In this document: in pieces, positions 42,472 to 57,329 of the stretch
Position numbering within the stretch: position 1 is the first letter of the stretch
How the letters are laid out: the number at the start of each line of letters is the position of its first letter
IMG/VR virus record: IMGVR_UViG_3300045988_141150
Origin: a virus
Direction: 5' to 3' (one strand)
DNA: 64,000 nucleotides
Translations under genes and position numbers: made by a program
Notes under the pieces: model-generated
Told to the model about the DNA's origin: nothing
What the model saw: only the letters and a program-made list of their open reading frames with translations
The model's database searches: none

Positions 42472-42480
42472 AAATCCTCC

Positions 42481-44130
42481 TTATTTCATTGCTTCTTTAT
42501 TTTGAATAGTTTTTTCACTTTTCTAATCATCAGGTTTTTCCGGACGTCCTGCTTCGCCATTAGAAACTTTAGCAGTTCCAGAACCTGAGCTTCCTGAATT
42601 ATTTTGAGTTTTATTATTAGATGATGAACCTTTTAAACCCAAAATATCTTCACTACCCATAGTAGAACTCATAAGAGGAGGAATCATAATTTCACTTAAA
42701 TGTAAAATCTCATTTTCAAAATGAGCTGCATTAAGAATAAAACTCTATGAATGTCCAAGAGCAATCTAAGACAATAGTTTTGATTGTCCCATTTGCGCTT
42801 GTTCTTTATACATTTTAGAAAGTGTTTGATAATTATTCTGAGTAGTTTCTAATAAATAAAATCTAAAATTATATTTCTTATTACTACTCTTTTTTTCAAT
42901 AATTCTATTAAAGAATATATTAAACTATAAAATTAAACTTCTTATTGTAGATTCATCATTTAATACTGATTTTTCTAAAGCCATATTGCCATCAGTATTA
43001 AACAAATTCTATGAAATACCTAATGAATTATAAACACTACGTTCAACTTTAGCTAAATCATCTGTCGTTGTAGTAGTATTTTTATCAGACATATCAATAG
43101 AATCTACATCAGTAAATGTAGTTAAAACATCTACTCCAATAGCCCTCTATAACATCTAAACGGCATTATTATGGATATCTCTGGCTTCATCAACATCAAA
43201 TATCAAATCACCATTTTTATCCATTGGGAGCTTTTGGACTAAAATTTTAAGCAACTTCTACATTTGTTTCTTGCGGTCAAGATCTTGCGCTGCATCTAAA
43301 TCCATAATAGTAGGAATGGAATTTACAAAAATAGGAACATCACTATTATTAATATTAAATTTAATACAATTTTCTGGCTCAAGAACATACCAACTACCAG
43401 TATGCTAGCATCCAACCGCATCTTCTAAAGCAAGTTTTCCTTGCTTATATAAAACATAACCTTTAGCAAATTCTTCTGGGAATAATTTTAATACTTTTAA
43501 GCGATAATTCATATCTTTAAAAGTATCAAAAAATCGCATATCAAATTCGACAACTGGGATATTATTTACACTATAACGTGTTCTACAATATCTAACTGGC
43601 AATTCTTGTAAAATTAGATTTTTCTCTGAAGGAACTATATATCCATAATAGCATCCATTTTTAACAACTTGCAAAGCAATATCTCCACAAATCTTTTTAA
43701 TATAACTATTATCAAAATAATTCAACATTCTATAAAAATCTTTTAAAACTTTTTCTTCTTTTACATTATCATCATAAGTTTCGGCTGCAATATACCAATC
43801 ATAGCGGTATAAAAAAGCAACATAATTACAAACTCGTTGATATACACCACTTATATCATAATAAAAATTAGAAATGTATCGCAAAGTATTTAAATCTCTT
43901 TCTGCGAGTGCGCGAAGCACATCAGGTTTCGTAATAATACGATTTTGACCTGGGTATCTAATCTTACTATAATCACCAAGTTTTAAAATAGCATCATCTA
44001 AAGTTTTTGTGCCAACTTTTATTTTTCTATTGGCATAATCCGTAGCATCATTATAATTATATTCACAACGACCATTATAAATATCAAAACCTTTAGCATG
44101 AATCTAATCATTACGATCTTGCGTATCCAA
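42481..44130 (-). CDS. portal protein (about 549 aa, multiple TAG)
   Basis: TTG start with GGAGG RBS; frame followed by hand into ORF 43405..43920; TAA at about 42481; size and position between terminase and scaffold. Confidence 0.5.
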
Positions 44131-44143
44131 AGTTCCACCTCCT

Positions 44144-44500
44144 TTAATAACCTGCTAATTTCATTATATAATCATAAGAAATAAGGTTTTCGTCGGTATA
44201 TGGAATCTCTATTAATCTAAAATCATGTAAAGCGCAAAAACGTCTTTTTTGATTATCATTATATTGCTACTGGTATAAACCGCGTTTTCCGCCAAATTTA
44301 GAACTGGCTTCATAATGCTATTTTCCCTAATACTCAATAATGAAATCAATTTTTCCATCATCATCAAATATAACAAAATCAAAACGAAGCGGACGCCCGC
44401 TGGGGCTTTTTAAATCTGGAAAGATATATTCCATTTTAAAAGGTAGTCCTGCTTCTTCTAAGATTTCTTCAATTTTAATTTCTCCTCTTGAAGCACGCAT
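44144..44500 (-). CDS. small PD-(D/E)XK-type (Vsr/DUF559-like) nuclease-fold protein (about 118 aa, 3 TAG)
   Basis: ATG at 44500 with GGAGGG RBS; motif RFDFVIFDDDGKIDFIIEY*GK*HYE resembles the DUF559 core (vDF..iElDGgqH) when TAG is read as a sense codon; TAA stop. Confidence 0.35.
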
Positions 44501-44512
44501 TTTCCACCCTCC

Positions 44513-46066
44513 TTAATTTAAAAAGCACCAATCAGCTGCATTAAACTTTTTACGTTTTTTCTTTTTATCTTCTTCAAGTTTTAAATAATATAATCCATAT
44601 TCAAAAGCCGAAAATTTATCTTTACGAATTCCGCGATTTGCTTGTTTTAGAATAATATTAATACCTTCATTTTCTTCGCGTAAATTCATCATTTCTTCTT
44701 TTAATATGGAGGTTAAAGTAAATGGTTTTAAATAATCTGCCCTTTGTTCAGGAGTCATTTTTGAACCTTTTTGAGTAGCTAATAATTTTTCTTTAGCCGT
44801 TCTCTCATCTATTAAGAATTTTACCTTACCCGCTTGTAATTGAGTCTGAGCATTAGCATGACATTCAGTATTTATTGGAGCATTTGCTTTAATAACATAC
44901 ATAGCATCAAATTGAGTATTTGGTGTGCGATATTTTTTATAATATCCATCATCATCATTCTCAACGCCAAAATCAGGTAAAAATTCACCATCTTCATCAT
45001 TTTGAGATTTTACCATATAATCTAAAAGCCCAATACCTAAACCATTACCGTCTATAACTAAAGTTTTAGCTTTATATTTATAAAATAATTTCTTTAATTT
45101 AATAGCCTAATCTTCAAAATGATCATCTGACATAGTATACATATTTACTAATGATTTAATAGCTGGACCTTGAGCTTGTGGTGTTACTTTAAATACACAA
45201 ACTACTGAATCGCATCCCTTACGGCCTACATCTACAGAAAGCACATAATAAGCTTGCGCGCCCGCACGTCCAGAAGCTTCATACTCAGGCTATAATAATT
45301 TTCTATTTCTATCAAAATGCTCTCCATTAAAGAAAGCATCTTCAACAGTTCCTGACCACTTAGATTCATATTCACGCTCAAATGAGGCCTCGTTATAAGT
45401 TCCTTCATTCTTTTGGTCAGTAATAAATGTCTTACTTTGTAATCCTACCGCAACAGGAGTTCGCCATGTTCCGCCTAATACCATACAACGATCGGGCTAA
45501 GTTACCATACGAACTAAGAAACCAATAAGTCTATCATAAGGGAACGTGCCCTTATAACCAGCAGTAGTAATATAGATTTGTGATTTATTTAATGGCTCTT
45601 GCTCATTGGTAGTGCCATCTTTAGCTCTACGGGAAATTGCCATAACAGGAATAATAACTTCACGAAGGATGGCATCATCAATACCAACACACTCTTCCAT
45701 TAGTCCACCATGACGACGCTGACCACGAGTGCTTTCACGAGCTGCGAGGTTATCTAAAACTGAACCATTTTTAAATACATATCTAACTTTATCTTTTCCT
45801 TCAAGAGTTTTTCCTCGGCTCCAATCAATTTCTCGATTAAAACTTGGAATAAGTTCACATATTTCTTGAACTTTATCATGAAGAATACTAGCACCTTGTT
45901 CTTTACCTCCAGAAGTAACGAATAGATGCGCACCAGGATACAAAATACATCTAATCATTAATGCCATAACAGACAAAAATGATTTAGAATAAGCACGAGG
46001 AAAAACCGCGTAAACATACTAATAACGCATAACAGAACGGAGAAATACTCTCTAATAAAAATAAAA
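44513..46066 (-). CDS. terL: terminase large subunit (about 515 aa, at least 4 TAG)
   Basis: ORFs 45497..45976, 45290..45484 and 44513..45016 share one frame; ATPase-like N-terminal region and nuclease-like C-terminus; position upstream of the portal; TAA at 44513; start not resolved. Confidence 0.55.
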
Positions 46067-46251
46067 ATTAAATTCTCCATCTTTTATTTCAGTGCGTCTT
46101 CCTCGCACCATAAAATCTACAAATAAATCAGGATATTCTCTCCAAAAAGCAACGTATTTTCGGATGATGGGCATTACCGCCTCTACTCGCTCCGGTGATA
46201 AACCTATTTTTCTACGGCTATCACTTAACTACAGTAAATCTTGTAATGCCA

Positions 46252-47439
46252 TTATTTATTCAAACCCTATAAGAACTCATTATCTTGCGCGGACTCCTAT
46301 TCTTTAAATTCCTCAAAGTCCGCGTAATCACTATCTTTAATAGTTTTTTCAAGTTCTTCAATACTTAAATCAGCATCATCAACGATATCACTTTCCACGT
46401 TCTTTGCTTTCTCTTCATCTTCTTTAGCATTTTCGCGTAAAGCCTTTTCTACCATTGTGCTAATATTAGTTTCATCTTCAATAAGAGTGCGAGTATAACG
46501 TTGCATATCTTGAATAGTTAAATCCACTTTATCATGTGGCTATTCAACATAATATCTTTCAATATATCCTTCTTTTTCACACAATTCAATTAATTCACCA
46601 ATTGAATCAACAAATTCACCTGATTCTGCTTTATTTTGAGCAGCGGTAAATTTACCAGACTTCATTAAGCTATCGTATACTTTGCTCATCTTTTGGAAAC
46701 CTTCAATATCACCAATATCGATCAATTGATTTGCCTTTAAAGATGTCTTACATATTAATTTTAGCGTATCTTTGTGTCCGGCACCTTGAATATCATAAGA
46801 AGCCATCATTTCTTCATACAACTATTCAAGCTTAACCCATTCTTCAGGCTTATAAGTTTTGCCCCATTTAAGTCTTAAATAAGTGCGGTCTTCATCAGTT
46901 AAATCTAATTCTTGTTCCACTTCACCACTCTATTGTGCGAAATAATCTTCCGTAGGAGCATTAGGTGGTGGAGCATAAACCGGCTCTTTTAGTTCTCCTT
47001 CTGGAATAGCGATAGAACTTTTTTCAATAGCAGTTGCAATCTATTGAGCGTCATATCCTTGGCGTTTCATAGTTTGCTCTAATTTATTATTTGCCATCTA
47101 CTGTAAAAATTCTGTATCTTTCCAACGATAATCTTTAAACTATTTGAGTTTCATTTTTGACAAATAACGTCCAAGAATTGTCATACCGGTCATAGACTGC
47201 GGATCGCGCCCATATTTTTCCATTAATTTATTCCATTCGTCTGGGACATAAGGAACATCCGCTTCTTGTAAAATCCATAAATAAGTATCTGGATTCCAAT
47301 TATCGACGTGCATTGTCATACATTTTTTGCACACAGGGAATTTACCATCATTAGGATATTTTTCTAAATTATTAGATGAATAAAATTCCGTGCCATTCAT
47401 TGTGCGGTTACATTTTTCGCAATAATATGTTTCAGCCAT
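46252..47439 (-). CDS. hypothetical protein with N-terminal zinc ribbon (about 395 aa, about 9 TAG); possible small-terminase position
   Basis: ATG at 47439 with AGGAG RBS; CxxC..CxxC; frame followed by hand through ORFs 46540..46821 and 46297..46527 to TAA at about 46252. Confidence 0.35.
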
Positions 47440-47488
47440 AAATAAGATATTCTCCTTTCAATTATTTATTATAAACAAAAGGACAATA

Positions 47489-48544
47489 TTAAGATTTTTT
47501 GGCCTTAGAATTTCGACAACTTTTACAAATACTATAAAAGCCATCTTTACTTGTTTTATTTTTACTAAAATATTTATTGTGAGCTAATTTTATTTTGCCA
47601 CAACGACTACATTTTTTATATTTACCTTTTTCAACATTTAAATAATAATTATCTAAGTATTCATCTTCCGCAGTCGAAGCAATTAATTTTGGAATTTTAT
47701 TACGCCATAAACTTGAAATATATTCAAGGCTGTGCTTAATACCAAATTCCATTTGTATTTTCTCTTGAATGTCAATATTTTGTAAACCATCAATTTTATA
47801 TTCAACGATTCTATCATAAAGAGGATAATTAGCTAAAGCTTTATCACAAAGTTTATCAAAATCCTCCATTAAATACCATAAATCTTTATCATATTCGCCC
47901 CAACTATCTTGCTTTAATCGGGAATAATTACATAAAATCGCAGAACATATCTCAGGTCTTAATAAACTAATTCCATCAGGAATGGGAAAACCATCATCAT
48001 CAAAAATAAATGTTTCATCATCTAATGGAATATAAGACTTTGATCTGGTTAATTTTGTAGGCACTATTGGACGACGATAAGCATTTTTTATAACATACTA
48101 ATCTTTACGCATTTCAATAAGAGCCTTTTTAATAACAAAAGCATCTTTACCTTCTGTTACTTTTAATTTAGCCTCCCAAACATTAATGGCTTCTCTTAAC
48201 TAATTTAAACTTGGTATCTCTTCTAAATCTTTTTTTGTAATTGTAATATGTGGTTGAAATATTGTATTTCTATTATCTGTAATTAAATTATAAATTCCAT
48301 CTTCGCCATTTTCGAGTTGGGAAACAAGACCTTCAAAAGAAGTCTCACGTTTATTAACTGTAGCCATACGATTATCAGTTAATAATTTTTTCTCCTTTTT
48401 TTCTTGTTTCTCCATACAAAGAACCAAATAGTCTGCTAAAATTTCTAAATACTTTTCAGGCGGATCTGGATTATCAGCCAAAATTTGTTCGACTAATTGA
48501 TTTCTTTCTTCTGGAGTTTGTAAAGAATAATCAAGTTTTATCAT
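47489..48544 (-). CDS. first late-operon protein (351 aa if both TAG are read through; 114 aa if TAG terminates), C-terminal zinc ribbon
   Basis: ATG at 48544 with GGAGG RBS; TAG at codon 115 (48200) and a second TAG (48098); same frame continues into ORF 47489..48064; TAA stop. Confidence 0.5.
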
Positions 48545-48568
48545 TTTTTACCTCCAGTCTATGTTTAT

Positions 48569-48597
48569 ATTATACTCGAAAAAATTTTTTTTGTCAA
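48569..48597 (-). promoter_or_regulatory. sigma70/sigmaA consensus promoter for the late operon
   Basis: minus-strand TTGACA (48592-97), 17-nt spacer, TATAAT (48569-74), about 20 nt upstream of the RBS and ATG of gene 47489..48544. Confidence 0.55.
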
Positions 48598-48679
48598 GTT
48601 TCATTTAAAAATTTTTCTTTTTATATTTAAAAATTTTTTTAACAAAACAAATAACTTTTGCCCAATCACGCCCTACGAT

Positions 48680-48708
48680 TTGACATTTTTTATTTTTTAT
48701 TTTATTAT
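48680..48708 (+). promoter_or_regulatory. promoter for the first plus-strand gene
   Basis: TTGACA-17-TATTAT. Confidence 0.4.
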
Positions 48709-48736
48709 TATTATAAGAAAAAGAAAAGGAGTATTT

Positions 48737-49129
48737 ATGGAAATTATTTTTATTGTATTATTGAGTTGTGCGTTAGTAGTATCCCTCCTTTTTTTATGGT
48801 TATACAGAAAAGCCTTTTGGGTATTATACCAAAAAATGGCAAATCAGCAAAAAGAATTAAATAAATGGCCAATCGCGCAATATGAGTGTATGTTATTATT
48901 AAATATATTTTATAATTATGACTTTGAGGGAAGAGCAGTAGATTTTTCGCGATATGAAACGCAAGGACTAATTGTTTATAATTGTTTTCATGAAGCGAAA
49001 AATAGTCCAAAAGGAATTACAAATGATGGAATTGTTTCATCATTTTATAAACAAGCATTTGTATATGAATTAGATGATGGAACATTTGAATGGGAGGATA
49101 TTGAAAATGGGTCGGAACCAGCCTTTTGA
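48737..49129 (+). CDS. small membrane protein (131 aa)
   Basis: ATG with AAAGGAG RBS; N-terminal transmembrane helix; standard code; AT-rich. Confidence 0.55.
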   Translation: MEIIFIVLLSCALVVSLLFLWLYRKAFWVLYQKMANQQKELNKWPIAQYECMLLLNIFYNYDFEGRAVDFSRYETQGLIVYNCFHEAKNSPKGITNDGIVSSFYKQAFVYELDDGTFEWEDIENGSEPAF

Positions 49130-49502
49130 AGTAAGAGGAATAGATGCGGTAATATTTAGATTAGAACAAGAATATTCTAACGCAACAAGAGATAAAGATC
49201 CTTTTGTAAGAGATTGGAAATTATTTAAAACAATACGTATTGAGAAAAAGGATAATGGGTCAAGAACAATTACTTACAGACCTTTATCAGACGCGGAAAA
49301 GGCTCAATTAAGCACCAAAGAAGAACAAGAAGAATATCAGTTAAACAAATACAAATATGTATTAGAGCACTTAATGGAAAAATATGATATAAATACTATT
49401 AATAGATATATTGATAGTTGTAAATATAAAGATAAATTAATTGAATATATTGAGAAAAAATTAAATGCGGAAACCACTCAGCCCTTTGAAGGCAATTGCT
49501 AA
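49107..49502 (+). CDS. hypothetical protein (131 aa)
   Basis: ATG at 49107 with GGAGG RBS; overlaps the end of the upstream gene. Confidence 0.5.
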   Translation: MGRNQPFEVRGIDAVIFRLEQEYSNATRDKDPFVRDWKLFKTIRIEKKDNGSRTITYRPLSDAEKAQLSTKEEQEEYQLNKYKYVLEHLMEKYDINTINRYIDSCKYKDKLIEYIEKKLNAETTQPFEGNC

Positions 49503-49596
49503 AAAGTGTCAGCAGAAAGTCACTTATTCTGTTACTTCTGGATTATACACTCTTATGCAGGGTGAGAAACCTAAAAGAGGTAGAAAAAAGAAATCA

Positions 49597-49707
49597 TGAT
49601 TTGAAATTAAAAATTGATTTGTTGTTTTAACCGTATTCTGAAATTGAAAATTGATTTAGATAAATTTAAATTATTCTTCGTGATTTGAAATTGAAAATTG
49701 ATTTAGA
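49597..49707. repeat. three iteron-like direct repeats (tgatttgaaattgaaaattgattt), spaced about 42-45 bp apart
   Basis: copies at about 49597, 49637 and 49682 in the non-coding stretch where GC content switches. Confidence 0.6.
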
Positions 49708-49739
49708 TTGCGTTTTGACCACGCAAAAGGAAAAACACA

Positions 49740-50079
49740 AATAAAAAAAAATTTTTTCCCGAAATACACCCCCGCCCTATAAGGTTCTAACTTGTTTATT
49801 CTCTGAGAGTATACCAGCCTTACTCTCGCTCTTTTGCGGAACGCAAGACCCCATCCCGCATAAATGCCCCGGTAAACGTTGCTCGGCTCGCTGGCGGTAG
49901 TGGCGAGCCGAGTTTTATAAAAATCAGCAGTTTGCACAAATTTCTCGCCGAAACTTCGTCATAATGCACAAACATCAAAATGCCCGAAACTACGCCATCA
50001 CATTTGGGTAAAATGACTATTGACAATCCAGTAGCCATGTGCTATACTTGTATCATCAAAAAGAAAGAGGTAAATCAAA
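49740..50079 (+). repeat. partial, diverged copy of the early intergenic cassette (TTTTTTCCC box, GC hairpin, GCACAAA box, promoter)
   Basis: hairpin gctcggctcgc..gcgagccgag (49881-49913) followed by gagtttt; ttgcacaaattt box; ttttttccc at 49751. Confidence 0.4.
50020..50048 (+). promoter_or_regulatory. consensus promoter
   Basis: TTGACA-17-TATACT with TG extension (tgtgcTATACT). Confidence 0.55.
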
Positions 50080-50445
50080 ATGAAGAACATTTCCAAAATC
50101 ATCACCATGGCCATTGCTATCATTCTCTCCGTGTCTTTCTTTGGCCCGTTCCACGACCACACAACCGCGGAAGCCTGTGAGGAAGCGCCCCAGTCCTACG
50201 ACCTCTCGGTCATTGAGAATTGGTGCGGTTCAGGCACGGAGCGCGGAAGTATCCGTTTCGTCGGCGCAGAGGTCTATGAGCGCGAGGGCGATACACTGAC
50301 GCTCATTGATGAGCAAGGCAATCTGTGGGACGTGGAAGCACTCAACATTGATGACAACGACTTCTTGCTCTTGTGGATTAACGACAATGACACTGACACT
50401 GTGGAAGATGATACAATCATTAAGGTATGGAGAGAGGCTTACTAA
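50080..50445 (+). CDS. secreted or membrane-anchored protein with an N-terminal signal peptide (121 aa)
   Basis: RBS AAGAGG; hydrophobic N-terminus MKNISKIITMAIAIILSVSFF; acidic. Confidence 0.55.
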   Translation: MKNISKIITMAIAIILSVSFFGPFHDHTTAEACEEAPQSYDLSVIENWCGSGTERGSIRFVGAEVYEREGDTLTLIDEQGNLWDVEALNIDDNDFLLLWINDNDTDTVEDDTIIKVWREAY

Positions 50446-50476
50446 GTCTCTCTCTTTCTTGCGGATCGGCGAAGAT

Positions 50477-50494
50477 TGTTAAAAAATTAACAAG
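50477..50494. promoter_or_regulatory. perfect 18-bp palindrome TTGTTAAAAAATTAACAA (candidate operator or activator site)
   Basis: centre lies 29.5 bp upstream of the -35 box at 50515; identical copy at 50899 with identical spacing. Confidence 0.45.
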
Positions 50495-50514
50495 CAAAGA
50501 AGAGTAAAAAACTC

Positions 50515-50543
50515 TTGACAAATGCGCAATGATGTGCTACAAT
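50515..50543 (+). promoter_or_regulatory. consensus promoter
   Basis: TTGACA-17-TACAAT (tgtgcTACAAT). Confidence 0.55.
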
Positions 50544-50573
50544 GTAGATACAATAAGAAAGGGGAATACTCAG

Positions 50574-50864
50574 ATGACTAATAAGAATTTTTATAATGCT
50601 CTCAAAGCAGAAAAGGAACGGTTGATGAACGAAAGCAAGCAGGCATCCCGCGACTGCCAGATTAAGCATGGTGAGATGTCAAAGGCATGGAACATTGTCA
50701 ATGCCCTTGAAAGCTTGGGTAAGTTTGGCACGCAGGAACTCAGCAACGCGTATGATAACTATGAGGAAGCCAGCTACGCAAGTATGTTAGCAGACAACCA
50801 CTTCGATGACATTGATGAAGCCATTGATAAGATAAATGGATTGATGGGTCTTTACGAAGAATAA
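50574..50864 (+). CDS. small acidic protein (96 aa)
   Basis: ATG with AAAGGGG RBS; TAA stop. Confidence 0.55.
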   Translation: MTNKNFYNALKAEKERLMNESKQASRDCQIKHGEMSKAWNIVNALESLGKFGTQELSNAYDNYEEASYASMLADNHFDDIDEAIDKINGLMGLYEE

Positions 50865-50888
50865 GGGAGCAGTAATGCTCCCTTTCTA
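50865..50888 (+). terminator. rho-independent terminator
   Basis: gggagc-agtaat-gctccc then ttt. Confidence 0.5.
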
Positions 50889-50898
50889 ACGGCGTAGA

Positions 50899-50916
50899 TT
50901 GTTAAAAAATTAACAA
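50899..50916. promoter_or_regulatory. second copy of the palindrome TTGTTAAAAAATTAACAA
   Basis: identical sequence; centre 29.5 bp upstream of the -35 box at 50937. Confidence 0.45.
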
Positions 50917-50936
50917 AGATTTTTCTCAAAAAGGTC

Positions 50937-50970
50937 TTGACAAATCAGTTAGAATGTGGTATTCTATAAT
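50937..50970 (+). promoter_or_regulatory. consensus promoter
   Basis: TTGACA-17-TATTCT overlapping TATAAT. Confidence 0.5.
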
Positions 50971-50994
50971 CACAAAGGGAAAGGGGAAAGAAAA

Positions 50995-51204
50995 ATGATT
51001 TATGGCATTGTTTATTATACTAAGGGCGGTCAGGGCTATCTCTTCCAGCAAGCGTTCGAAGAACAGCGCGCTATGGAGATTGCAGGTAAGATGAACGACT
51101 TACTCGCGACAGGTGCTACGATGTATAATGATAAGTCCTATGGCAAGCTCGACTTGCGGAACGTTGAGTATTTCACAGTTGAACCCAGTAGCGAAATGTA
51201 TTAA
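50995..51204 (+). CDS. small protein (69 aa)
   Basis: RBS AAAGGGGAAAG; TAA stop. Confidence 0.5.
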   Translation: MIYGIVYYTKGGQGYLFQQAFEEQRAMEIAGKMNDLLATGATMYNDKSYGKLDLRNVEYFTVEPSSEMY

Positions 51205-51208
51205 GGGC

Positions 51209-51236
51209 GGGAGCGGGCTCCCCGCTCTTTCTCTTG
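51209..51236 (+). terminator. rho-independent terminator
   Basis: gagcggg-ctcc-ccgctc followed by tttctctt. Confidence 0.5.
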
Positions 51237-51327
51237 CGCCGTGGGGCGCGTGTAGAGCGTCCCAGCCCGAACTTTATCACAGTAAAGCATTAAAGCAAAA
51301 TTTTTTCCATTTTTTGCCAAAAACCAC

Positions 51328-51356
51328 TTGACATTCCTATCCCGAAATGCTATAAT
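51328..51356 (+). promoter_or_regulatory. consensus promoter
   Basis: TTGACA-17-TATAAT (tgcTATAAT). Confidence 0.55.
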
Positions 51357-51389
51357 AGTATCATCAAAAGAAAGAAAGAGGTAAATCAA

Positions 51390-51512
51390 ATGTCTATTCA
51401 CGATGGTCTTGTTCTTCTCGCTATCTATGTTGGTGTTATCGGCGCGGGCGCGCTCATCGAATACGTGGAGCACCGCGTAAAGAGAGCGGTTCATCGCAGA
51501 AAGAGAAGTTGA
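51390..51512 (+). CDS. hydrophobic micro-protein (40 aa, single transmembrane helix with basic tail)
   Basis: RBS AAGAGG; MSIHDGLVLLAIYVGVIGAGALIEYVEHRVKRAVHRRKRS; below the ORF-track size cut-off. Confidence 0.4.
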   Translation: MSIHDGLVLLAIYVGVIGAGALIEYVEHRVKRAVHRRKRS

Positions 51513-51530
51513 AAAACTTCTCTTTTTTTA
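51502..51530 (+). terminator. rho-independent terminator
   Basis: agagaagtt-gaaaa-aacttctct then T7. Confidence 0.5.
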
Positions 51531-51540
51531 TAAAAAACAC

Positions 51541-51574
51541 TTGACAAATCCAACAGCCGGTGCTATACTATAAT
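51541..51574 (+). promoter_or_regulatory. consensus promoter driving a transcript of about 140 nt with no convincing ORF
   Basis: TTGACA-17-TATACT/TATAAT; transcript begins tTGTCAAGAGGGG. Confidence 0.5.
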
Positions 51575-51726
51575 TGTCAAGAGGGGAAGAGATAAGTTAC
51601 TTCCCAAAGGGTGTGTGGCAAGTAGCCATTTCCTTTGATAAAACGCTTAGTTGGAGCGACCAGACAGGGCGCGCACTGTCCGCAAAAGTAGAGAATAAAA
51701 AAATTCCAACTTCTCAAAAAAACCTC

Positions 51727-51755
51727 TTGACAGACCCCTTAGAGTGTGATACAAT
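51727..51755 (+). promoter_or_regulatory. consensus promoter flanked by the 9-bp inverted repeat CTCTTGACA ... TGTCAAGAG
   Basis: cCTCTTGACAgacccc..TACAAT..aTGTCAAGAGg. Confidence 0.5.
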
Positions 51756-51759
51756 AAGG

Positions 51760-51813
51760 ATGTCAAGAGGCAGACAGGAGCGAACAACCTCTCCCCAATG
51801 CGTAGTTGGGTGA
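51760..51813 (+). CDS. leaderless micro-ORF MSRGRQERTTSPQCVVG (17 aa)
   Basis: ATG 5 nt after the -10 box with no RBS; one of a family beginning MS(R/G)G. Confidence 0.25.
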   Translation: MSRGRQERTTSPQCVVG

Positions 51814-51859
51814 AGTAAAACAAAATCTCCCTACCGAACAAAAAAGTTCAAAAAACCTC

Positions 51860-51888
51860 TTGACAAACCCCTTAGAGTGTGATACAAT
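51860..51888 (+). promoter_or_regulatory. consensus promoter driving the tRNA-like RNA
   Basis: cCTCTTGACAaacccc-17-TACAAT. Confidence 0.5.
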
Positions 51889-51900
51889 AAGGGTACAGAT

Positions 51901-52012
51901 GGCGGTGAGGTAGAACGGTTCTACTTCCACAAAGATGGCTGAGATACAAAAGTGTCGCTCACTTGGAAACGTTCGCTATTGGAAAATGTGGGTTCAACTC
52001 CCACCACCGCCT
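51901..52012 (+). ncRNA. tRNA-like small RNA (about 112 nt): 7-bp acceptor stem, D-arm with GG, canonical TTCAACT T-arm, but an aberrant 34-nt anticodon region
   Basis: ggcggtg pairs with caccgcc; D-arm gtag-aacggtt-ctac; T-arm gtggg-ttcaact-cccac; own promoter; no ORF; stem ttcca/tggaa (25-29 with 64-68) encloses 34 nt; no CTA triplet in the loop. Confidence 0.35.
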
Positions 52013-52032
52013 CAAAATTTTTTGAAAAAACA

Positions 52033-52061
52033 CTTGACAAATCCAAAAGTAGATGTTATAA
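52033..52061 (+). promoter_or_regulatory. consensus promoter
   Basis: TTGACA-17-TATAAT (tgtTATAAT). Confidence 0.55.
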
Positions 52062-52093
52062 TGTAGATACAATAAGAAAGGGGATAAAAACCA

Positions 52094-52356
52094 TGACTAC
52101 TTACAACATTCTCACTATTGGCCCTTCTCGTGAACCGAAGCTCGCGGGCAAGTTCAACGTTGCGGATACTGAAAACTTCCTTGACCGGTTAGAGGAAACG
52201 CTCTACATTCTCTTTGAATTAGAGCCGAAATCCCGCGAATGGAAACGCGAATTTCTCAAACATCTTTTTGCGGAATTCACTTATCACTTTTGCGAAGATT
52301 CCCGCGTTGAAAAGCAAGGCAACAATATTATCGTTTATGAAGAAAATGAGGGCTGA
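52094..52356 (+). CDS. hypothetical protein (87 aa)
   Basis: RBS AAAGGGG; TGA stop. Confidence 0.55.
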
Positions 52357-52375
52357 AAAAGCCCTCATTTTTTTT
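52348..52375 (+). terminator. rho-independent terminator
   Basis: gagggct-gaaaaa-gccctc then T8. Confidence 0.55.
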
Positions 52376-52396
52376 CAAACTTTTTTCAAAAAACTA

Positions 52397-52428
52397 TTGA
52401 CATTTACTGCCCTAAGTGGTATTATAAT
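52397..52428 (+). promoter_or_regulatory. consensus promoter
   Basis: TTGACA-17-TATTAT/TATAAT. Confidence 0.55.
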
Positions 52429-52472
52429 ATCAGAAAGGGAAAGGAAAATCCCGAACACCAGAAAGGTTAGCT

Positions 52473-52664
52473 ATGGATACTTTCGAAATGTATTACGAGA
52501 AATTCATGAAGATGCGCAAGGCTGACATTATTCGCGAGGGTCAGACTTGGGATATTTGGGCAAACTGCCAAAGCACTGCCGATAGCCTGATGAAGTGGAC
52601 AAAGCCCGTTCTTGCGAGAGTTCTTGCTGGACGCCTGGACCGTTTGGAAAAGCGGGGCTACTAA
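52473..52664 (+). CDS. hypothetical protein (63 aa)
   Basis: RBS AAAGG; TAA stop. Confidence 0.5.
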   Translation: MDTFEMYYEKFMKMRKADIIREGQTWDIWANCQSTADSLMKWTKPVLARVLAGRLDRLEKRGY

Positions 52665-52680
52665 GCCCCGCTTCTTTCTT
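52650..52680 (+). terminator. rho-independent terminator
   Basis: aagcggggc-tacta-gccccgctt then ctttctt. Confidence 0.5.
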
Positions 52681-52691
52681 GAAAAAAGTTC

Positions 52692-52720
52692 TTGACAAAT
52701 CTCGAATCTATGGTATAATA
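52692..52720 (+). promoter_or_regulatory. consensus promoter
   Basis: TTGACA-17-(tgg)TATAAT. Confidence 0.55.
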
Positions 52721-52749
52721 AGAGTATAAAAGGAAAGGGGATAAACAAA

Positions 52750-52989
52750 ATGACTTTGGACATGATTAAAAATGTAATTGGCACGGTAAAAGGCGCGCTG
52801 ATGTTCTATGAGGGGAATGGCGTCGAAGTGATAAACGAAAACACTTGCGGTCGCTATCTCAAAGACCGCAAAGGTCGCATGACTTTGAATGGTGATGTGT
52901 TAGACGCAAGCGAAGAGTGGGTGCTGGGATTGCCGGTCAGCGATTTGAAAGCCAGAGATAACGTTCTCATTATTTATGTTGATGGCTAA
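52750..52989 (+). CDS. hypothetical protein (79 aa)
   Basis: RBS AAAGGGG; TAA stop. Confidence 0.5.
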   Translation: MTLDMIKNVIGTVKGALMFYEGNGVEVINENTCGRYLKDRKGRMTLNGDVLDASEEWVLGLPVSDLKARDNVLIIYVDG

Positions 52990-53004
52990 AATTAAATTTT
53001 TTGA

Positions 53005-53250
53005 ATTAAAAATCTCCCCAAAAATGGGGAGATTTTTTTGTACATTTTATCTATTGACAATCCCAAAACTTCATGGTATAATCGGCCGGCGCGCGAACGG
53101 ACCTGGCGCGCCGAGTTTTTGTCAATAGGCGGGTTGCACAAATTTTTGGGGCAAATCTTTGTGCATAATGTCAATAGACAGAATCCCGAATTGGTGCTAT
53201 ACTATAATCACAGTAAGGGAAGGAAAACCTACCAAACCGGAAAGGGATAA
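53005..53250 (+). repeat. early intergenic cassette, short type: terminator, promoter P1, GC hairpin plus T-tract, GCACAAA box, promoter P2
   Basis: terminator 53009-53040; P1 TTGACA 53045 with TATAAT 53068; hairpin cggcgcgc..gcgcgccg 53078-53104 then agttttt; P2 TAGACA-17-TATACT 53166-53194. Confidence 0.6.
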
Positions 53251-53254
53251 CAAC

Positions 53255-53563
53255 ATGATTAACATTCGTTCTATTCTCAAACTCGCTGAAAATGACGGTC
53301 TGACCCTCAAACATGGCAAGAAGGTCAATTACAAGTCCGGCTGGCAGGTCGCCACTAATGGCGTTGAATGTAAGACCGCCCGCGAAGCCATTAACGCGGT
53401 CAAGGAATATGGCGGCAACTGCGGCGTGTGGTTTGCGAACGGCATTTATTATGTTGACAAGTCCAAGAGGGTGCAGACCAAGAAGCAGGCGCTTGAAATC
53501 GGCAAGGCGTGCAACCAAATCAGTGTATATGGCTGGGCGCGCGGCAATCTGGCTTACTGCTAA
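53255..53563 (+). CDS. hypothetical protein (102 aa)
   Basis: true start at the internal ATG 53255 with AAAGGGA RBS; TAA stop. Confidence 0.5.
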   Translation: MINIRSILKLAENDGLTLKHGKKVNYKSGWQVATNGVECKTAREAINAVKEYGGNCGVWFANGIYYVDKSKRVQTKKQALEIGKACNQISVYGWARGNLAYC

Positions 53564-53573
53564 AAAATTAAAT

Positions 53574-53609
53574 AGAGGGCTTGACAAAACAAGCCCTCTA
53601 TGCTATAAT
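53574..53609 (+). promoter_or_regulatory. promoter whose -35 box sits in the loop of a 7-bp hairpin (agagggc-TTGACAAAACAA-gccctct)
   Basis: TTGACA 53581-86, 17-nt spacer, TATAAT 53604-09. Confidence 0.5.
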
Positions 53610-53641
53610 AAAGGCACAATAAAGGAAAGGGAGAAAACAAC

Positions 53642-53911
53642 ATGGAAATTAAATATGCTCACGAAATGGCGGCTATCGCTAAGGACATCCGCACCGCCAA
53701 GCGCGCCAAAGATACTGCTACGGCCCGCGCCTATCTTGAAGAAAACCTGATGAAAGATATTGAAGACCACGCGGAAAAAGGCGAGAATTATCTGTCTCGC
53801 TGTCTCGTTGCCATTGAAGATGAAGCCGTGAAAGAAGCCTTAAAAAATCTTTTGCGGAATTATGGCTATACAACTTCTTATTCAAACGGCGTTCTCACCG
53901 TAAGGTGGTAA
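53642..53911 (+). CDS. hypothetical protein (89 aa)
   Basis: RBS AAAGGGAG; TAA stop. Confidence 0.55.
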   Translation: MEIKYAHEMAAIAKDIRTAKRAKDTATARAYLEENLMKDIEDHAEKGENYLSRCLVAIEDEAVKEALKNLLRNYGYTTSYSNGVLTVRW

Positions 53912-53916
53912 GGTAA

Positions 53917-53946
53917 AAGAGGGAAAATTTTTCCCTCTTTTTCTAA
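53917..53946 (+). terminator. rho-independent terminator
   Basis: agagggaaaa-ttttt-ccctcttt then ttc. Confidence 0.5.
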
Positions 53947-53954
53947 AAAACTTC

Positions 53955-53983
53955 TTGACAAATCCAAAAGCAGATGTTATAAT
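53955..53983 (+). promoter_or_regulatory. consensus promoter
   Basis: TTGACA-17-TATAAT. Confidence 0.55.
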
Positions 53984-54015
53984 AAAAGCACAATAAAGGA
54001 AAGGGGAATAAATTA

Positions 54016-54087
54016 ATGGAATGTCCTTATTGCGATGGAAAGTGCGGAACACATGCTCAATGCGTTAAATGCGGAAAAGGGAAATAA
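54016..54087 (+). CDS. zinc-ribbon micro-protein MECPYCDGKCGTHAQCVKCGKGK (23 aa)
   Basis: RBS AAGGAAAGGGG; four Cys arranged as CxxC..CxxC; overlaps the RBS of the next gene. Confidence 0.35.
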   Translation: MECPYCDGKCGTHAQCVKCGKGK

Positions 54088-54089
54088 AA

Positions 54090-54446
54090 ATGGGAACGGA
54101 ATTCTTAATTATTGGCGGAATTTTTAGCGCAGTCCTTGCGCTGTTTGTCTGCCTTGTCTGTTGGTGCCGCATGGAAAAGTCTCACCCAATAGTCAGATTG
54201 TTAGTTGGTATCCTTATTTCGTGCGCCATCGGTTATGGCATGACGGGCGCGTTAGTCGCAGAACATAATGCCGATAGAAAAGCATGGAACAACGGCTATT
54301 GCTCCATTTGCGGAAATGAAATGGAATTTGTAAATGCTTCTCATGGTCGGCATGGAACAGTTTATTACTATTGGTATTGCGATGAGTGCGGTCATACGTT
54401 AGAGTTAACTTCTAACTTTGCAAAGGGGGAAACAGATAATGAATGA
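54090..54446 (+). CDS. membrane protein with two transmembrane helices and a C-terminal zinc ribbon (118 aa)
   Basis: internal ATG 54090 with GGGAAATAAAA RBS; CSICGN..CDECGH. Confidence 0.5.
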   Translation: MGTEFLIIGGIFSAVLALFVCLVCWCRMEKSHPIVRLLVGILISCAIGYGMTGALVAEHNADRKAWNNGYCSICGNEMEFVNASHGRHGTVYYYWYCDECGHTLELTSNFAKGETDNE

Positions 54447-54645
54447 AAAAACTATCCCACAGGCTTTGAGAGAACAGGCAGACGCCATTGAAAAGTTAGC
54501 TCAAAGAATTGCGAAAGAAAGCAAGGAATTTCCAGACGAGGAAGACCGCAGAGACGGCGGAGAACTTGCGGACGCTTTATTTGCGATTCAATCAAAGCTC
54601 CGCTATGAGTACTCTTGGATTGCGGAAACCATGTGGGACGTGTAA
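54439..54645 (+). CDS. small acidic protein (68 aa)
   Basis: ATG 54439 overlaps the upstream gene by 8 nt (operon); TAA stop. Confidence 0.5.
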   Translation: MNEKTIPQALREQADAIEKLAQRIAKESKEFPDEEDRRDGGELADALFAIQSKLRYEYSWIAETMWDV

Positions 54646-54646
54646 T

Positions 54647-54688
54647 TTTCAGGCGAGATTTAATTATCTCGCCTGAAAATTTTTTTCA
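54647..54688 (+). terminator. rho-independent terminator
   Basis: ttttcaggcgagat..atctcgcctgaaaa then T7. Confidence 0.55.
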
Positions 54689-54729
54689 AAAAACTATTGA
54701 CAAACTCACCCCGTTGTGGTATTATAATC

Positions 54730-54798
54730 ATGTCAAGAGGAAGTGGTAAGCCTCTTGAAGTAGTGAACAAATTTCTCATACTATGGTTTGCGCGGTAG
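54730..54798 (+). CDS. leaderless micro-ORF MSRGSGKPLEVVNKFLILWFAR (22 aa) that ends in TAG
   Basis: ATG immediately after the -10 box; one of only two early-region reading frames terminated by TAG. Confidence 0.25.
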   Translation: MSRGSGKPLEVVNKFLILWFAR

Positions 54799-54830
54799 CC
54801 GATAATTACCGCGCCCTTTCTATTTCATTT

Positions 54831-54848
54831 TTGTTAAAATTTTAACAA
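54831..54848. promoter_or_regulatory. third palindrome TTGTTAAAATTTTAACAA (variant of the 50477 and 50899 site)
   Basis: perfect 18-bp palindrome; same half-site TTGTTAAAA. Confidence 0.35.
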
Positions 54849-54893
54849 TGATTGTTCGGCCGGGCGCGCACGGACCACGCGCCCGGAATTTCA

Positions 54894-54922
54894 ATTATAT
54901 CACAGGGCCAGCAATTTGTCAA
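54894..54922 (-). promoter_or_regulatory. reverse-strand consensus promoter firing leftward into the GC hairpin
   Basis: plus strand reads ATTATA-17-TGTCAA, which is TTGACA-17-TATAAT on the minus strand; the only minus-strand signals in a plus-strand region. Confidence 0.5.
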
Positions 54923-55048
54923 GCAAAAAGTCGCGAAAATTTGCATAAATTATTTTTCCCAATTTTGTGCGATCCGTCAATAGACAAATCTCTAAGAGTG
55001 TGTTATATTATAATTGTTCCAAGGGAACAGAAAGATGAGGTAAATAAA

Positions 55049-55255
55049 ATGACTAACTACAACATTCACTCTTTTATCAAGACCCAGCTTCTCCATGCCG
55101 AGCAGATGCCCAGCGATGCCGAACTTTTCAAGCATAACGCCTATGGCGCAGTCTCGTGGGAGTTATATCGCACGAATGACCATGCCCTTGAAGAACAGTG
55201 GGCAAATGTATATGCTCCCAAGTTCGACGCCATCATCAGAAATTATCATTTCTGA
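55049..55255 (+). CDS. hypothetical protein (68 aa)
   Basis: internal ATG 55049 with GAGG RBS; TGA stop. Confidence 0.5.
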   Translation: MTNYNIHSFIKTQLLHAEQMPSDAELFKHNAYGAVSWELYRTNDHALEEQWANVYAPKFDAIIRNYHF

Positions 55256-55261
55256 TAAAAA

Positions 55262-55296
55262 GGGCTTGACAAAAGCCCTTTCGCATGATATAATAC
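55262..55296 (+). promoter_or_regulatory. promoter with its -35 box in a hairpin loop (aagggc-TTGACAAA-gccctt)
   Basis: TTGACA 55268-73, 17-nt spacer, TATAAT 55291-96. Confidence 0.5.
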
Positions 55297-55324
55297 ATAT
55301 ACAATCAAGAAAGAGGTAAAACAA

Positions 55325-55663
55325 ATGCTTATCAAAATGTCAAAACACGCCACGCAAGACCGCATTGACCGCCTGCTCTTCATCTACGATAATGTAGGAA
55401 TCGGCGAACCGTATATCGACAGTGTTGAGGACGATGTTCTCTACACTATCACTACAACAGGTATTCTTCTTGTTCGTAGTGCTAAGGACGGAACACTCAT
55501 TACAGCCTATATCGCGGATATTGATAAAATCACCGCAATATGGAGAAATAAGCACGGCGAGCGCCCTATGCCTGATAACCTTTACAAGCGGGTTCTCGCA
55601 AACGCGTTCTTTGATAGAATGTGGAATAAGCAAGAAAAGGAGAAAAAGAAAAATGTTCGGTAA
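55325..55663 (+). CDS. hypothetical protein (112 aa)
   Basis: RBS AAGAGG; TAA stop; first gene of a 3-gene operon. Confidence 0.55.
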   Translation: MLIKMSKHATQDRIDRLLFIYDNVGIGEPYIDSVEDDVLYTITTTGILLVRSAKDGTLITAYIADIDKITAIWRNKHGERPMPDNLYKRVLANAFFDRMWNKQEKEKKKNVR

Positions 55664-56006
55664 GAAAAAGAAGCCTTTCAATCCATATGAAAAACGCGCG
55701 GACGATGCGCTTTATGAAGTATGGGAAACGCGCGACCGCCTTTATGAAAAGACAAGGCAAGTCATTACGCGCGTAGGGGTGATTAACCTTTACCCCAATG
55801 GCGCTGACCGCGAGAAAGCCGTCTCTGACGCCGAAGAAGCGAAGCACGCTTTGCTTGTAGCTATTGGAGCATACGACACCGCGCGCATGGAATACAATGA
55901 TTATGTTGAAAAAAACGCGGAAAAGTTTGACAACCATAAAGAAAAATGGACTACCACGAGCCATGAAATTATCGAATGGGCTTACAAATACTATTATAAA
56001 GGGTGA
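55653..56006 (+). CDS. hypothetical protein (117 aa)
   Basis: internal ATG 55653 with AAGGAG RBS; overlaps the upstream gene by 11 nt. Confidence 0.5.
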   Translation: MFGKKKKPFNPYEKRADDALYEVWETRDRLYEKTRQVITRVGVINLYPNGADREKAVSDAEEAKHALLVAIGAYDTARMEYNDYVEKNAEKFDNHKEKWTTTSHEIIEWAYKYYYKG

Positions 56007-56011
56007 ATAAA

Positions 56012-56245: not shown

Positions 56246-56358
56246 TAAAACCGGACTTTGTCCGCGTTTCTCTCCCCCTTTCCTATGGCTTTGGCGGTTG
56301 TACCCCAAAAAACAACCGCCACCCTTTCCAAAAAATAAATTGAATGGAGATAAAAAAG

Positions 56359-57256: not shown

Positions 57257-57271
57257 ATTAAAAACTCTCTA

Positions 57272-57306: not shown

Positions 57307-57329
57307 AGAAAAAGGAAAGGGTGATAATA

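Follow-up and report, generated by a model that had tools for sequence, protein, structure and literature searches.

Does a sharp change of base composition and genetic code inside one metagenomic contig mark the meeting of two genomes, or can a single phage carry both? The question is raised by IMG/VR record IMGVR_UViG_3300045988_141150, of which we analysed a stretch of 64,000 nt, hereafter the window. Its left arm (1-48,540) is AT-rich, is encoded on the minus strand and uses TAG as a sense codon, and its right arm (50,081-64,000) is GC-richer and carries plus-strand genes that lack TAG. An earlier reading of this DNA from its letters only (the sequence-only reading) had pointed out the swing at 48.5-50.1 kb and proposed a mosaic of two lineages, an assembly chimera or a single genome. 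Our analysis makes it quite likely that the jump in composition and TAG use is a real and conserved boundary between the early and late genes of a single recoded phage, which maintains two codon-usage regimes. The window is very probably part of one ~191-kb phage from human gut metagenomes.

Base composition and codon use across the junction

The G+C content (GC) was 0.303 in the left arm, 0.306 in the short segment between the arms (48,541-50,080) and 0.430 in the right arm. Calculated per kilobase, it was 0.303 +/- 0.036 on the left versus 0.430 +/- 0.026 on the right (Mann-Whitney p = 2e-8). The sequence-only reading had judged the contrast by eye and proposed its exact calculation; the step is real, but with 30.3% versus 43.0% the right arm is less GC-rich than the 45-50% given there. 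A two-segment likelihood scan placed the maximum-likelihood change-point at 49,758 (2-lnL support 49,747-49,817), and the same position was obtained with 12 kb, 20 kb or the whole window as scan input. The change-point lies ~1.2 kb to the right of the strand switch (48,545-48,737), within the stretch that had been described as non-coding, and the composition boundary had accordingly been drawn ~1.2 kb too far left, at ~48.5 kb. The region 48,545-49,775, with two plus-strand genes and iterons, is the most AT-rich part (GC 0.275), and 49,776-50,079 already has a GC of 0.434. The cumulative GC-skew minimum at 48-49 kb is confounded with the strand switch located there.

Reading TAG as a sense codon increased the part of the left arm covered by open reading frames (ORFs) of at least 100 aa from 56% to 98% and extended the longest left-arm ORF from 556 aa to 2,761 aa, whereas read-through of TGA or TAA restored no left-arm ORFs in this way. 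The terminase large subunit (TerL), the portal protein and others are full length only with TAG read-through, as in-frame TAGs interrupt conserved phage genes. We counted 225 in-frame TAGs over 25 left-arm genes, which corresponds to 15.6 per 1000 codons and ~36% of the Gln codons; the same genes end in TAA (21) or TGA (4). The description of the left side as AT-rich, minus-stranded and using TAG as sense was thereby confirmed. When five late proteins were aligned to the orthologs of six standard-code relatives, Q occupied 84 of the 141 TAG positions (60%), compared with 56% at canonical CAA/CAG positions. Because the rate of Q at TAG positions equals the rate at CAA/CAG positions, we conclude that the left-arm TAG encodes Gln (code 15).

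The right arm did not need read-through for its ORFs. Its 29 confident genes, defined by an ATG start, a Shine-Dalgarno site and plus-strand orientation (2,874 codons), contain neither an in-frame TAG nor a TAG stop, and end in TAA (17) or TGA (12). The earlier count of 25 stops without TAG (14 TAA and 11 TGA) therefore held on the larger set. The right side had also been assigned the standard code; it is TAG-free and compatible with that code, but an unused TAG leaves the code itself unreadable from the sequence. TAG stops are likewise rare in the early arms of relatives, both recoded (24/659) and standard-code ones (11/151). This difference was not significant (p = 0.07), and we dropped the idea that the avoidance is specific to recoded members. 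TAG-stop avoidance is thus a family trait and no specific sign of anticipated suppression. The earlier suggestion of one genome, with early genes that can coexist with TAG suppression later on, remains supported, except that the depletion of TAG stops used in its favour is shared by relatives that are not recoded.

The composition step is almost wholly at synonymous sites. GC at the first, second and third codon positions (GC1/GC2/GC3) is 0.41/0.32/0.18 in the late genes of the left arm versus 0.50/0.35/0.53 in the early genes of the right arm. At four-fold sites, GC amounts to 0.16 in the left arm and 0.54 in the right arm, and in DNA outside ORFs to 0.28 versus 0.37. The four-fold sites are thus more extreme than the local non-coding DNA, in opposite directions in the two arms, which favours codon-level selection over regional mutation bias. 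The TAG-free major virion genes of the left arm (38,823-40,864; 33,875-34,858) favour GCT, CGT, CCT, CTT, GGT, AAG and CAG and avoid ATA, TTA, AGA and GGA, which is a classic pattern of translational selection. The early arm has the same avoidance of A-ending codons (shift correlation r = 0.64), together with a general enrichment of C/G-ending ones. Rightward of the early arm, relatives have TAG-free middle genes with GC3 of 0.25-0.45 and then TAG-containing genes with GC3 of ~0.15 again. GC3 therefore declines gradually from early (.53) over middle (.25-.45) to late (.18) genes, and not as two blocks.

The same partition was found throughout the family. Early GC3 exceeded late GC3 in 41/41 distinct relatives with enough sequence (difference 0.09-0.40), with differences of 0.12-0.25 in standard-code relatives and 0.21-0.40 in most recoded ones. 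Since standard-code relatives are already split, the partition is older than the recoding. TAG density correlated with late-arm GC3 (rho = -0.48, p = 0.0015) and not with early-arm GC3 (rho = 0.06), in a set of relatives that are not phylogenetically independent. The partition was therefore amplified as the late genes lost GC. Phages with standard-code early and recoded late genes, and low GC as a precursor of recoding, have been published (bioRxiv 10.1101/2021.08.26.457843), and our observation fits this low-GC-before-recoding idea. Just upstream of the first late gene, relatives sampled in many metagenomes display the same GC step and change of TAG usage. A megablast search with a junction-spanning 24-kb query against INPHARED phages gave no matches.

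The junction and the exchangeable early arm

The features that we located in the two arms and between them are as follows.

1-48,544, minus strand: late virion operon, AT-rich (GC 30.3%, GC3 0.18), TAG read as Gln; PHROG and Pfam matches
42,481-43,728, minus strand: portal gene
44,513-46,252, minus strand: TerL gene
47,489-48,544, minus strand: first late-arm gene (351 aa), with a C-terminal Zn-ribbon and in-frame TAG at codons 115 and 149
48,569-48,597, minus strand: predicted sigma-70 promoter of the first late gene, TTGACA-17-TATAAT, 12/12 consensus
48,680-48,708, plus strand: predicted divergent sigma-70-type promoter of the small AT-rich genes, 11/12 match
48,737-49,129, plus strand: backbone gene 1 (130 aa), with an N-terminal transmembrane helix
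49,107-49,502, plus strand: backbone gene 2 (131 aa), a clade-restricted ORFan
49,465-49,599, plus strand: possible third backbone gene (44 aa), with a basic tail
49,595-49,708, plus strand: three iterons of ~30 nt each, core GAAATTGAAAATTGATTT, spacing 37 and 47 nt
49,709-49,775, strand not assigned: conserved hairpin TTGCGTTTTGACCACGCAA, A/T tract and boundary motif AAATTTTTTCCCGAAATACAC, placed by alignment and change-point
49,776-50,019, plus strand: degenerate copy of the regulatory cassette, GC 43%, with a GC hairpin and T-run at 49,883-49,918; aligned to six other copies
49,776-64,000, plus strand: hyperplastic early arm, ~30 small genes (47-258 aa) and apparent small RNAs; GC 43%, GC3 0.53
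50,020-50,048, plus strand: predicted first early promoter, with extended -10
50,080-50,445, plus strand: first early gene (121 aa)
53,000-53,210, strand not assigned: composite regulatory cassette, in which a bidirectional terminator is followed by a promoter, a GC hairpin at +1 and a T-run or antisense promoter
54,760-54,970; 56,530-56,740; 58,570-58,780; 60,215-60,425; 62,530-62,740: further copies of this cassette

The two promoters at the strand switch are conserved. Among 20 diverse relatives, the promoter of the first late gene was found 53-59 nt upstream of it in 19, and a divergent plus-strand promoter within 60-143 nt, also in 19. Both in-frame TAGs of the first late gene (codons 115 and 149) align to an invariant Q, and the gene's full-length product is therefore expected only once TAG is suppressed. 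This gene has 481 relatives in IMG/VR, on contigs of up to ~200 kb from many metagenomes. On the other side, the two AT-rich plus-strand genes and the iterons that had been reported are indeed present. The backbone genes are TAG-free and are also called as genes in public assemblies; with GC1/GC2/GC3 of 0.40/0.29/0.22 (GC3 0.215), the two larger ones belong compositionally to the AT-rich side. The small backbone genes had no Pfam, PHROG or NCBIfam matches. For the junction ORFan (49,107-49,502), we found only 63 homologs, all at least 78% identical save one partial match of 57%; its structure model reached a pLDDT of 69, and the fold search gave no significant match (best Foldseek E = 0.5). 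Similar peptides occur at both ends of this ORFan (GRNQPFEV... and ...AETTQPFEG). The 44-aa ORF overlaps its 3' end in another frame and has its stop codon inside the first iteron.

The iteron core GAAATTGAAAATTGATTT is unique to this site on the plus strand of the window. Most close relatives have one to four copies, and none was detected in one of the loci (L001). The motif, with its orientation kept, is also found in lineages with late arms that are only ~70-75% identical, standard-code ones included, and it stands at the GC upshift in several divergent relatives. The iteron-like site is a conserved cis-site at the point where the early arm begins. Our best guess for its function is a replication origin or a regulator-binding site (operator). 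An A/T tract lies beside the 1-4 direct repeats, and no initiator was recognised in the gene searches. Sixteen close relatives are collinear up to ...TTTTTTCCCGAAATACACCCCC (~49,775), beyond which they diverge into two or more haplotype families that are unrelated to each other but alike GC-rich. The point of this split coincides with the compositional change-point at 49,758. The boundary motif AAATTTTTTCCCGAAATACAC at this place is also the right-end motif of the cassettes dispersed over the early arm.

To the right of this point, close relatives differ in a way that their late arms do not: the late arms are 95-97% identical and fully collinear, and the early arms are 50-80% alignable at 83-92% identity. 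Homology breakpoints fell outside coding sequences in 39 of the 57 cases even though coding sequences make up 63% of the arm (p = 1e-6), and their median distance to a promoter centre was 47 nt, compared with 122 nt for random positions. The early arm is thus a mosaic at the scale of single cassettes, which are exchanged among related phages. In the source genome the arm runs to ~66.3 kb, ~16.5 kb in total; there and in all close relatives, the GC-rich block ends ~2.3-3 kb past the right edge of the window, and phage genes follow.

Each early gene has a near-consensus sigma-70 promoter and a strong Shine-Dalgarno site, and often a terminator. Promoter-like sites of the TTGACA-17-TGnTATAAT type numbered 94 in the early arm, compared with 35.7 +/- 6.4 in shuffled sequences, and terminator-like hairpins 37, compared with 16.4. 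Promoters with at most one mismatch are 11-fold denser in the early arm than in the left arm (2.39 versus 0.21 per kb). Seven composite cassette copies of ~190 nt each, including the degenerate element at 49,800-50,010, can be aligned with one another. They share the order of a bidirectional terminator, GTTTACTTTGACTA-TTGACA-17-TAwAAT, a GC-rich hairpin at +1 and a T-run or antisense promoter, and end in ...TTTTTTCCCGnnATTTG. A perfect hairpin of at least 8 bp follows 160 of 1037 distinct promoter contexts from the relatives, but only 2 of 1037 shuffled ones. Since base pairs could not be counted in the MAFFT alignment of the hairpins, which was out of register, stems were detected copy by copy. 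Among these hairpins we distinguished ~30 GC-rich stems, and the hairpin structure is therefore kept while its sequence changes. Neither the promoter/hairpin cassettes nor the synonymous-site nature of the shift had been recognised when the junction was first described.

Explanations for the split

Were the contig an assembly chimera, with an AT-rich recoded contig misjoined at 48.5-50.1 kb to a mid-GC contig of another organism, the abrupt change of composition and codon usage would follow directly, and two IMG/VR contigs (L001 and L003) do stop within or just after the iterons, where assemblers struggle. However, positions 40,080-60,445 are 100% identical to scaffold_23 (190,948 bp) of ENA ERZ28595197 and positions 40,080-53,038 to a Logan contig of ERR414507, and a SPAdes contig spans 48,778-53,356 with 1 mismatch in 4,579 bp. 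Positions 51,367-64,000 are also 100% identical to a MEGAHIT contig of 152,315 bp; the ENA scaffold and the Logan and MEGAHIT contigs possibly come from one sample, whereas the SPAdes contig is from a different ENA submission. Relatives of 70-99% identity, sampled in many metagenomes, have this architecture too, and phage DNA with TAG-recoded genes resumes beyond the GC-rich block. Since several assemblies contain the same junction, and dozens of related IMG/VR contigs show the GC step together with the code switch, the chimera considered by the sequence-only reading can practically be dismissed. We give next to no weight to a prophage-host junction either, in which the recoded part would be an integrated prophage and the GC-rich part the flanking chromosome. 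A GC rise at the ends of recoded prophages has been reported (Borges et al., bioRxiv 10.1101/2021.08.26.457843), and the right arm has host-type promoters and host-like codons, but no integrase, attachment-site features or bacterial housekeeping genes were found. Instead, the arm consists of small ORFans with matches to phage families only (AbrB/MazE-like, polynucleotide-kinase-phosphatase-like and PHROG 20187). The block is only ~16.5 kb long and is followed by phage genes, including HNH endonucleases with in-frame TAG, and full-length contigs of ~190-200 kb have the junction at varying offsets, as expected for assemblies of permuted or circular phage genomes.

A recent mosaic, by which the GC-rich arm was gained as one block from a GC-richer standard-code phage or host and has not yet ameliorated, agrees better with the high variability of the arm, in which at least two unrelated haplotypes start at one exact point and only 50-80% can be aligned between strains with near-identical late arms. 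It would also explain why the codon usage resembles that of average genes of a mid-GC genome and why the non-coding DNA of the arm is GC-richer too, and a short early-arm segment of one relative (L073) is closer to the window (85.7%) than its late arm is (74%), which suggests exchange between lineages. A single recent gain, however, cannot explain a GC3 asymmetry present in 41/41 relatives, recoded or not. Both haplotype families are equally GC-rich and nearly without TAG stops, the 57 breakpoints indicate cassette-wise exchange rather than one block, and the promoters on either side of the boundary follow one consensus. Middle genes have intermediate GC3, and the four-fold sites of the arm are GC-richer than its intergenic DNA. 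We consider such a recent gain unlikely, and the mosaic of two lineages proposed earlier gives way to a layout ancestral to the family, with graded GC3 and exchange cassette by cassette. A physical genome end is likewise a rather unlikely explanation; the iterons would then be a pac site, a terminal-repeat boundary or an injection stop, and the GC-rich arm would enter the cell first, as in SPO1 or T5. The small early genes with strong promoters do resemble SPO1's host-takeover module, which comprises 26 small early genes in a 12.4-kb terminal region (PMC6873191), the conserved iterons lie exactly at the edge of the arm near the terminase genes, and two contigs end at the iterons. Contig ends are, on the other hand, not clearly enriched there (~3 of ~50 long contigs, counted by hand from the contig table), and motif and contig ends do not coincide in other lineages. 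A terminase-small-subunit signature was found neither in the junction ORFan nor in the first late gene, and termini cannot be read from assemblies. A genome end alone would also not explain the shift at synonymous sites.

Several observations speak against an early/late boundary with two codon-usage regimes, or against parts of it. One lineage (L077/L078) is recoded and yet almost without the step. The two plus-strand genes of the backbone are AT-rich (GC3 0.215) in spite of their sigma-70 promoter and lack of TAG, so that the contrast is partly one between conserved backbone and exchangeable arm. The non-coding DNA is also GC-richer on the right (0.37 versus 0.28), so that part of the shift is background composition. 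The temporal classes early, middle and late were assigned from promoters and gene content only. The label 'sigma factor' of the first late gene comes from PHROG 5767 only, and we recognised no sigma-70 region 2 or 4 domain or fold in this protein. No tRNA, suppressor tRNAs included, was found in the window or in its flanks as represented by relatives (~10 kb on the left, ~28 kb on the right); the search comprised three walking steps to the right, one to the left and a sweep of ~85 fetched loci, with none near the window. Finally, the host search through GTDB genomes returned only mis-binned metagenome-assembled genomes (MAGs) with incoherent taxonomy; 'host-like' codons denote here the G/C-ending codons typical of a mid-GC genome.

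With an early/late boundary in a single recoded phage as the preferred explanation, the back-to-back sigma-70 promoters at 48.57-48.71 kb would form a hub where two expression programmes meet. The leftward promoter would fire into the first gene of the virion operon, fully translatable only with TAG read as Gln, and the rightward one would fire through two or three backbone genes up to the iteron-like site. At 49.76-49.78 kb the conserved backbone would stop and a ~16.5-kb hyperplastic immediate-early region would start, built from dozens of promoter-gene-terminator cassettes for small proteins and probably small RNAs. With sigma-70 promoters, Shine-Dalgarno sites, G/C-ending codons and no TAG, these early genes could be read by an unmodified host, and related phages would swap cassettes by recombination at the common regulatory sequences. 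The early genes would have been kept host-like (GC3 0.53) while the late genes drifted or were selected to A/T-ending codons (0.18) and gained TAG as Gln. The late genes would then depend on a translation apparatus altered by the phage, for example by a suppressor tRNA or phage tRNAs, of which none was located.

Whether the GC3 split and TAG recoding are two layers of one translational switch is a more speculative step, which we regard as possible but doubtful. In such a switch, the early genes and the host mRNAs would use G/C-ending codons served by the tRNA pool of the host. The phage might remodel this pool via tRNA or tRNA-like cassettes of the early arm, a suppressor tRNA and possibly depletion of host tRNAs. 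The A/T-ending, TAG-bearing late mRNAs would thereby become translatable, and host and early messages would be turned down. The boundary with its iterons and recombination motif would part an exchangeable 'host-language' arm from a 'phage-language' core, and drift of the late arm towards A/T, in a genome partitioned beforehand, could have opened the way to recoding.

Several components of this organisation have precedents. The code-15 crAss-like, Lak and 'gemstone' clades (bioRxiv 10.1101/2021.08.26.457843) and the phAss-1 group (PMC10607447) share the reassignment of TAG to Gln and the gut as source with our phage. As in these phages, in-frame TAG is concentrated in the structural genes, the standard code suffices for the early genes, and both the recoded lineage and its standard-code relatives are low in GC and depleted of TAG stops. 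Unlike in them, the recoded and non-recoded parts are here 35 GC3 points apart, with a base-pair-sharp boundary, a feature which those papers do not describe and which here predates recoding in the family, and a suppressor tRNA was not located in the window and ~38 kb of flanks from relatives; the phAss-1 genome has 44.5% GC overall (PMC10607447). The early arm resembles the promoter-early stem-loop (PeSL) cassettes and the hyperplastic regions of T4-type phages (PMC2839356; PMC4122927), in which sigma-70 promoters and stem-loops also flank small ORFans and which are also the main site of indels and replacements between close relatives, with breakpoints within cassettes. It is, however, not a member of the PeSL family: it belongs to an unrelated, SPbeta-like lineage with a presumably Gram-positive host, has +1 hairpins with CGGCnnGC-type stems, some of them between face-to-face promoters, and forms one large contiguous arm with its own boundary motif and iterons and a composition distinct from the core. 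The SPO1 takeover module is of similar size (12.4 kb versus 16.5 kb here), also has small genes with strong host-type promoters and ribosome-binding sites, and also lies next to, yet separate from, the late genes. In contrast, PHROG scans gave no homology to SPO1 genes, SPO1 is not recoded, and a comparable GC3 split is not described in PMC6873191. In Shigella phage Sf14, GC3 falls from 39% in early to 37% in middle and 32% in late genes, and the late genes are adapted to phage tRNAs (PMC12482277); early/late codon-usage differences in tRNA-bearing phages are attributed there to Mioduser et al. 2017. Both phages have early genes with higher GC3 and more host-like codons and late genes with lower GC3, and adaptation of late genes to a phage tRNA pool has been proposed, but the split is 35 GC3 points here and ~7 in Sf14, and here it is sharply bounded and coupled to stop-codon reassignment.

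Partial recoding with standard-code early genes and modest early/late differences in codon usage are thus already published. We found no earlier description of so large (35 GC3 points) and so sharp a split, of its occurrence in relatives with the standard code or of its coincidence with a recombination boundary at a conserved site, and the PeSL-like cassette system appears to be undescribed in this phage group. A very large compositional break inside a metagenomic phage contig can be genuine biology, which is relevant to chimera filters, binning and gene callers that assume a single code and codon model per contig. The existence of standard-code and recoded members with the same architecture makes it possible to study the order from partition over AT-drift of the late genes to TAG capture. 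Shuffling of promoter/stem-loop cassettes, until now a T4-type feature, is extended to unrelated large gut phages, and their small early proteins and RNAs form a rich, as yet unexplored source of candidates for host takeover or anti-defence.

Late genes, small RNAs and relatives

In addition to TerL and the portal gene, the late arm holds YonD_N and YonG_N proteins (Pfam), major-capsid-like genes and other structural PHROGs. TerL is similar to the proteins of large phages of Gram-positive bacteria (Enterococcus, Geobacillus, Bacillus) and, at ~45% identity, to that of the recoded gut phage phAss-1, and by its gene content the virion module is SPbeta-like. Two giant ORFs lie on the minus strand, one at 23,619-31,877 (2,752 aa, 80 in-frame TAGs) and one at 1,890-9,638 (2,582 aa, 26 TAGs). 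The major virion genes (38,143-40,864; 33,875-34,858, minus strand) have no TAG and prefer CAG over CAA. In three of these four genes GC3 is ~0.30, the top value within the late arm, and in the fourth (38,143-38,736) it is 0.19. It appears that late genes with high expression avoid the reassigned codon. A candidate late-promoter motif, GAAAAwTAwTAGAGTrATG, had 3 matches with 0.73 expected, a number that was reached in 7/100 shuffles, and it was dropped.

About 20 kb to the right of the window, two HNH homing endonuclease genes of a relative (L107:12,186-13,115 and 15,685-16,203) lie in a TAG-free mid-GC region. They are themselves very AT-rich (GC3 0.16-0.18), one with 9 in-frame TAGs, and look like mobile genes written in the 'late' dialect. 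In a gene-by-gene coupling of GC3 and TAG beyond the GC-rich island, the AT- and TAG-rich outliers were such endonucleases and thus uninformative. Single tRNA genes do occur inside the early arms of more distant relatives (L095:7,559-7,634; L096:2,157-2,232 and 6,633-6,704), Lys-UUU twice and Cys-GCA once; Lys-UUU decodes AAA, the Lys codon preferred in the late genes (83%).

In the lineage almost without the step (L077/L078), a very AT-rich block (GC 0.15-0.22) is found 2.4-4.5 kb upstream instead of a GC-rich early arm, and the promoter upstream of the first late gene was not detected. Another set of relatives, on GTDB contigs (L116-L137), lies inside MAGs labelled Mollicutes, Tenericutes, Treponema, Bacteroidales, Lachnospiraceae and others, including a 'Mollicutes' MAG contig of 163,874 bp whose TerL is 99% identical to that of the window; these placements look like binning artefacts. 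The record IMGVR_UViG_3300032167_000002 (402,311 bp) contains two diverged junction copies ~204 kb apart (L046 and L055) and may be two related phage genomes concatenated.

The only annotations within the early arm are an AbrB/MazE-like, a HAD/polynucleotide-kinase-phosphatase-like and an exonuclease-like PHROG 20187 protein. Three of its seven largest proteins had no match in the PHROG scan, and the matches of the others were not SPO1 takeover genes. All genes on the right had been said to lie on the plus strand; this is true of the confident protein genes, but four consensus promoters face leftward (54,922; 58,712; 60,359; 62,675) and probably drive short antisense RNAs. Three of these form face-to-face consensus pairs ~95 bp apart (58,619/58,712; 60,264/60,359; 62,580/62,675), and the transcripts of each pair would overlap exactly across one GC-rich hairpin. 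The lone minus-strand promoter at 54,922 sits over the same kind of hairpin. This arrangement is reminiscent of sense/antisense RNAs such as those of type I toxin-antitoxin loci, and no Rfam family matches. Over the junction and the whole right arm, nothing reached the Rfam gathering score, and the matches to fstAT, STnc230 and leaders were terminator look-alikes.

A tRNA-like RNA of ~117 nt is predicted at 51,901-52,017 on the plus strand, with a promoter at 51,860-51,888 and a terminator behind it. Its acceptor stem is 7 bp long (GGCGGTG/CACCGCC); it further has a canonical T-arm (GGGTTCAACTCCC), a D-like arm and an over-long central arm in which the anticodon loop is not obvious, and was not called by ARAGORN. 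The Rfam match is to the ends of the tmRNA model only (16.8 bits, E = 0.002), the fold has a z of -3.0, and the element is confined to loci of exactly this strain. Two further promoter-driven stretches on the plus strand (51,570-51,700 and 51,760-51,850) have no convincing ORF or ribosome-binding site, and both start with ...GTCAAGAGG. This motif is found again behind the promoters at 54,697, 56,583 (past its hairpin) and 62,862, and these stretches may constitute a family of small early RNAs. Finally, the early genes at 60,852-61,226 (124 aa) and 63,203-63,580 (125 aa) are paralogous with 79% nucleotide identity, which indicates a duplication within the early arm.

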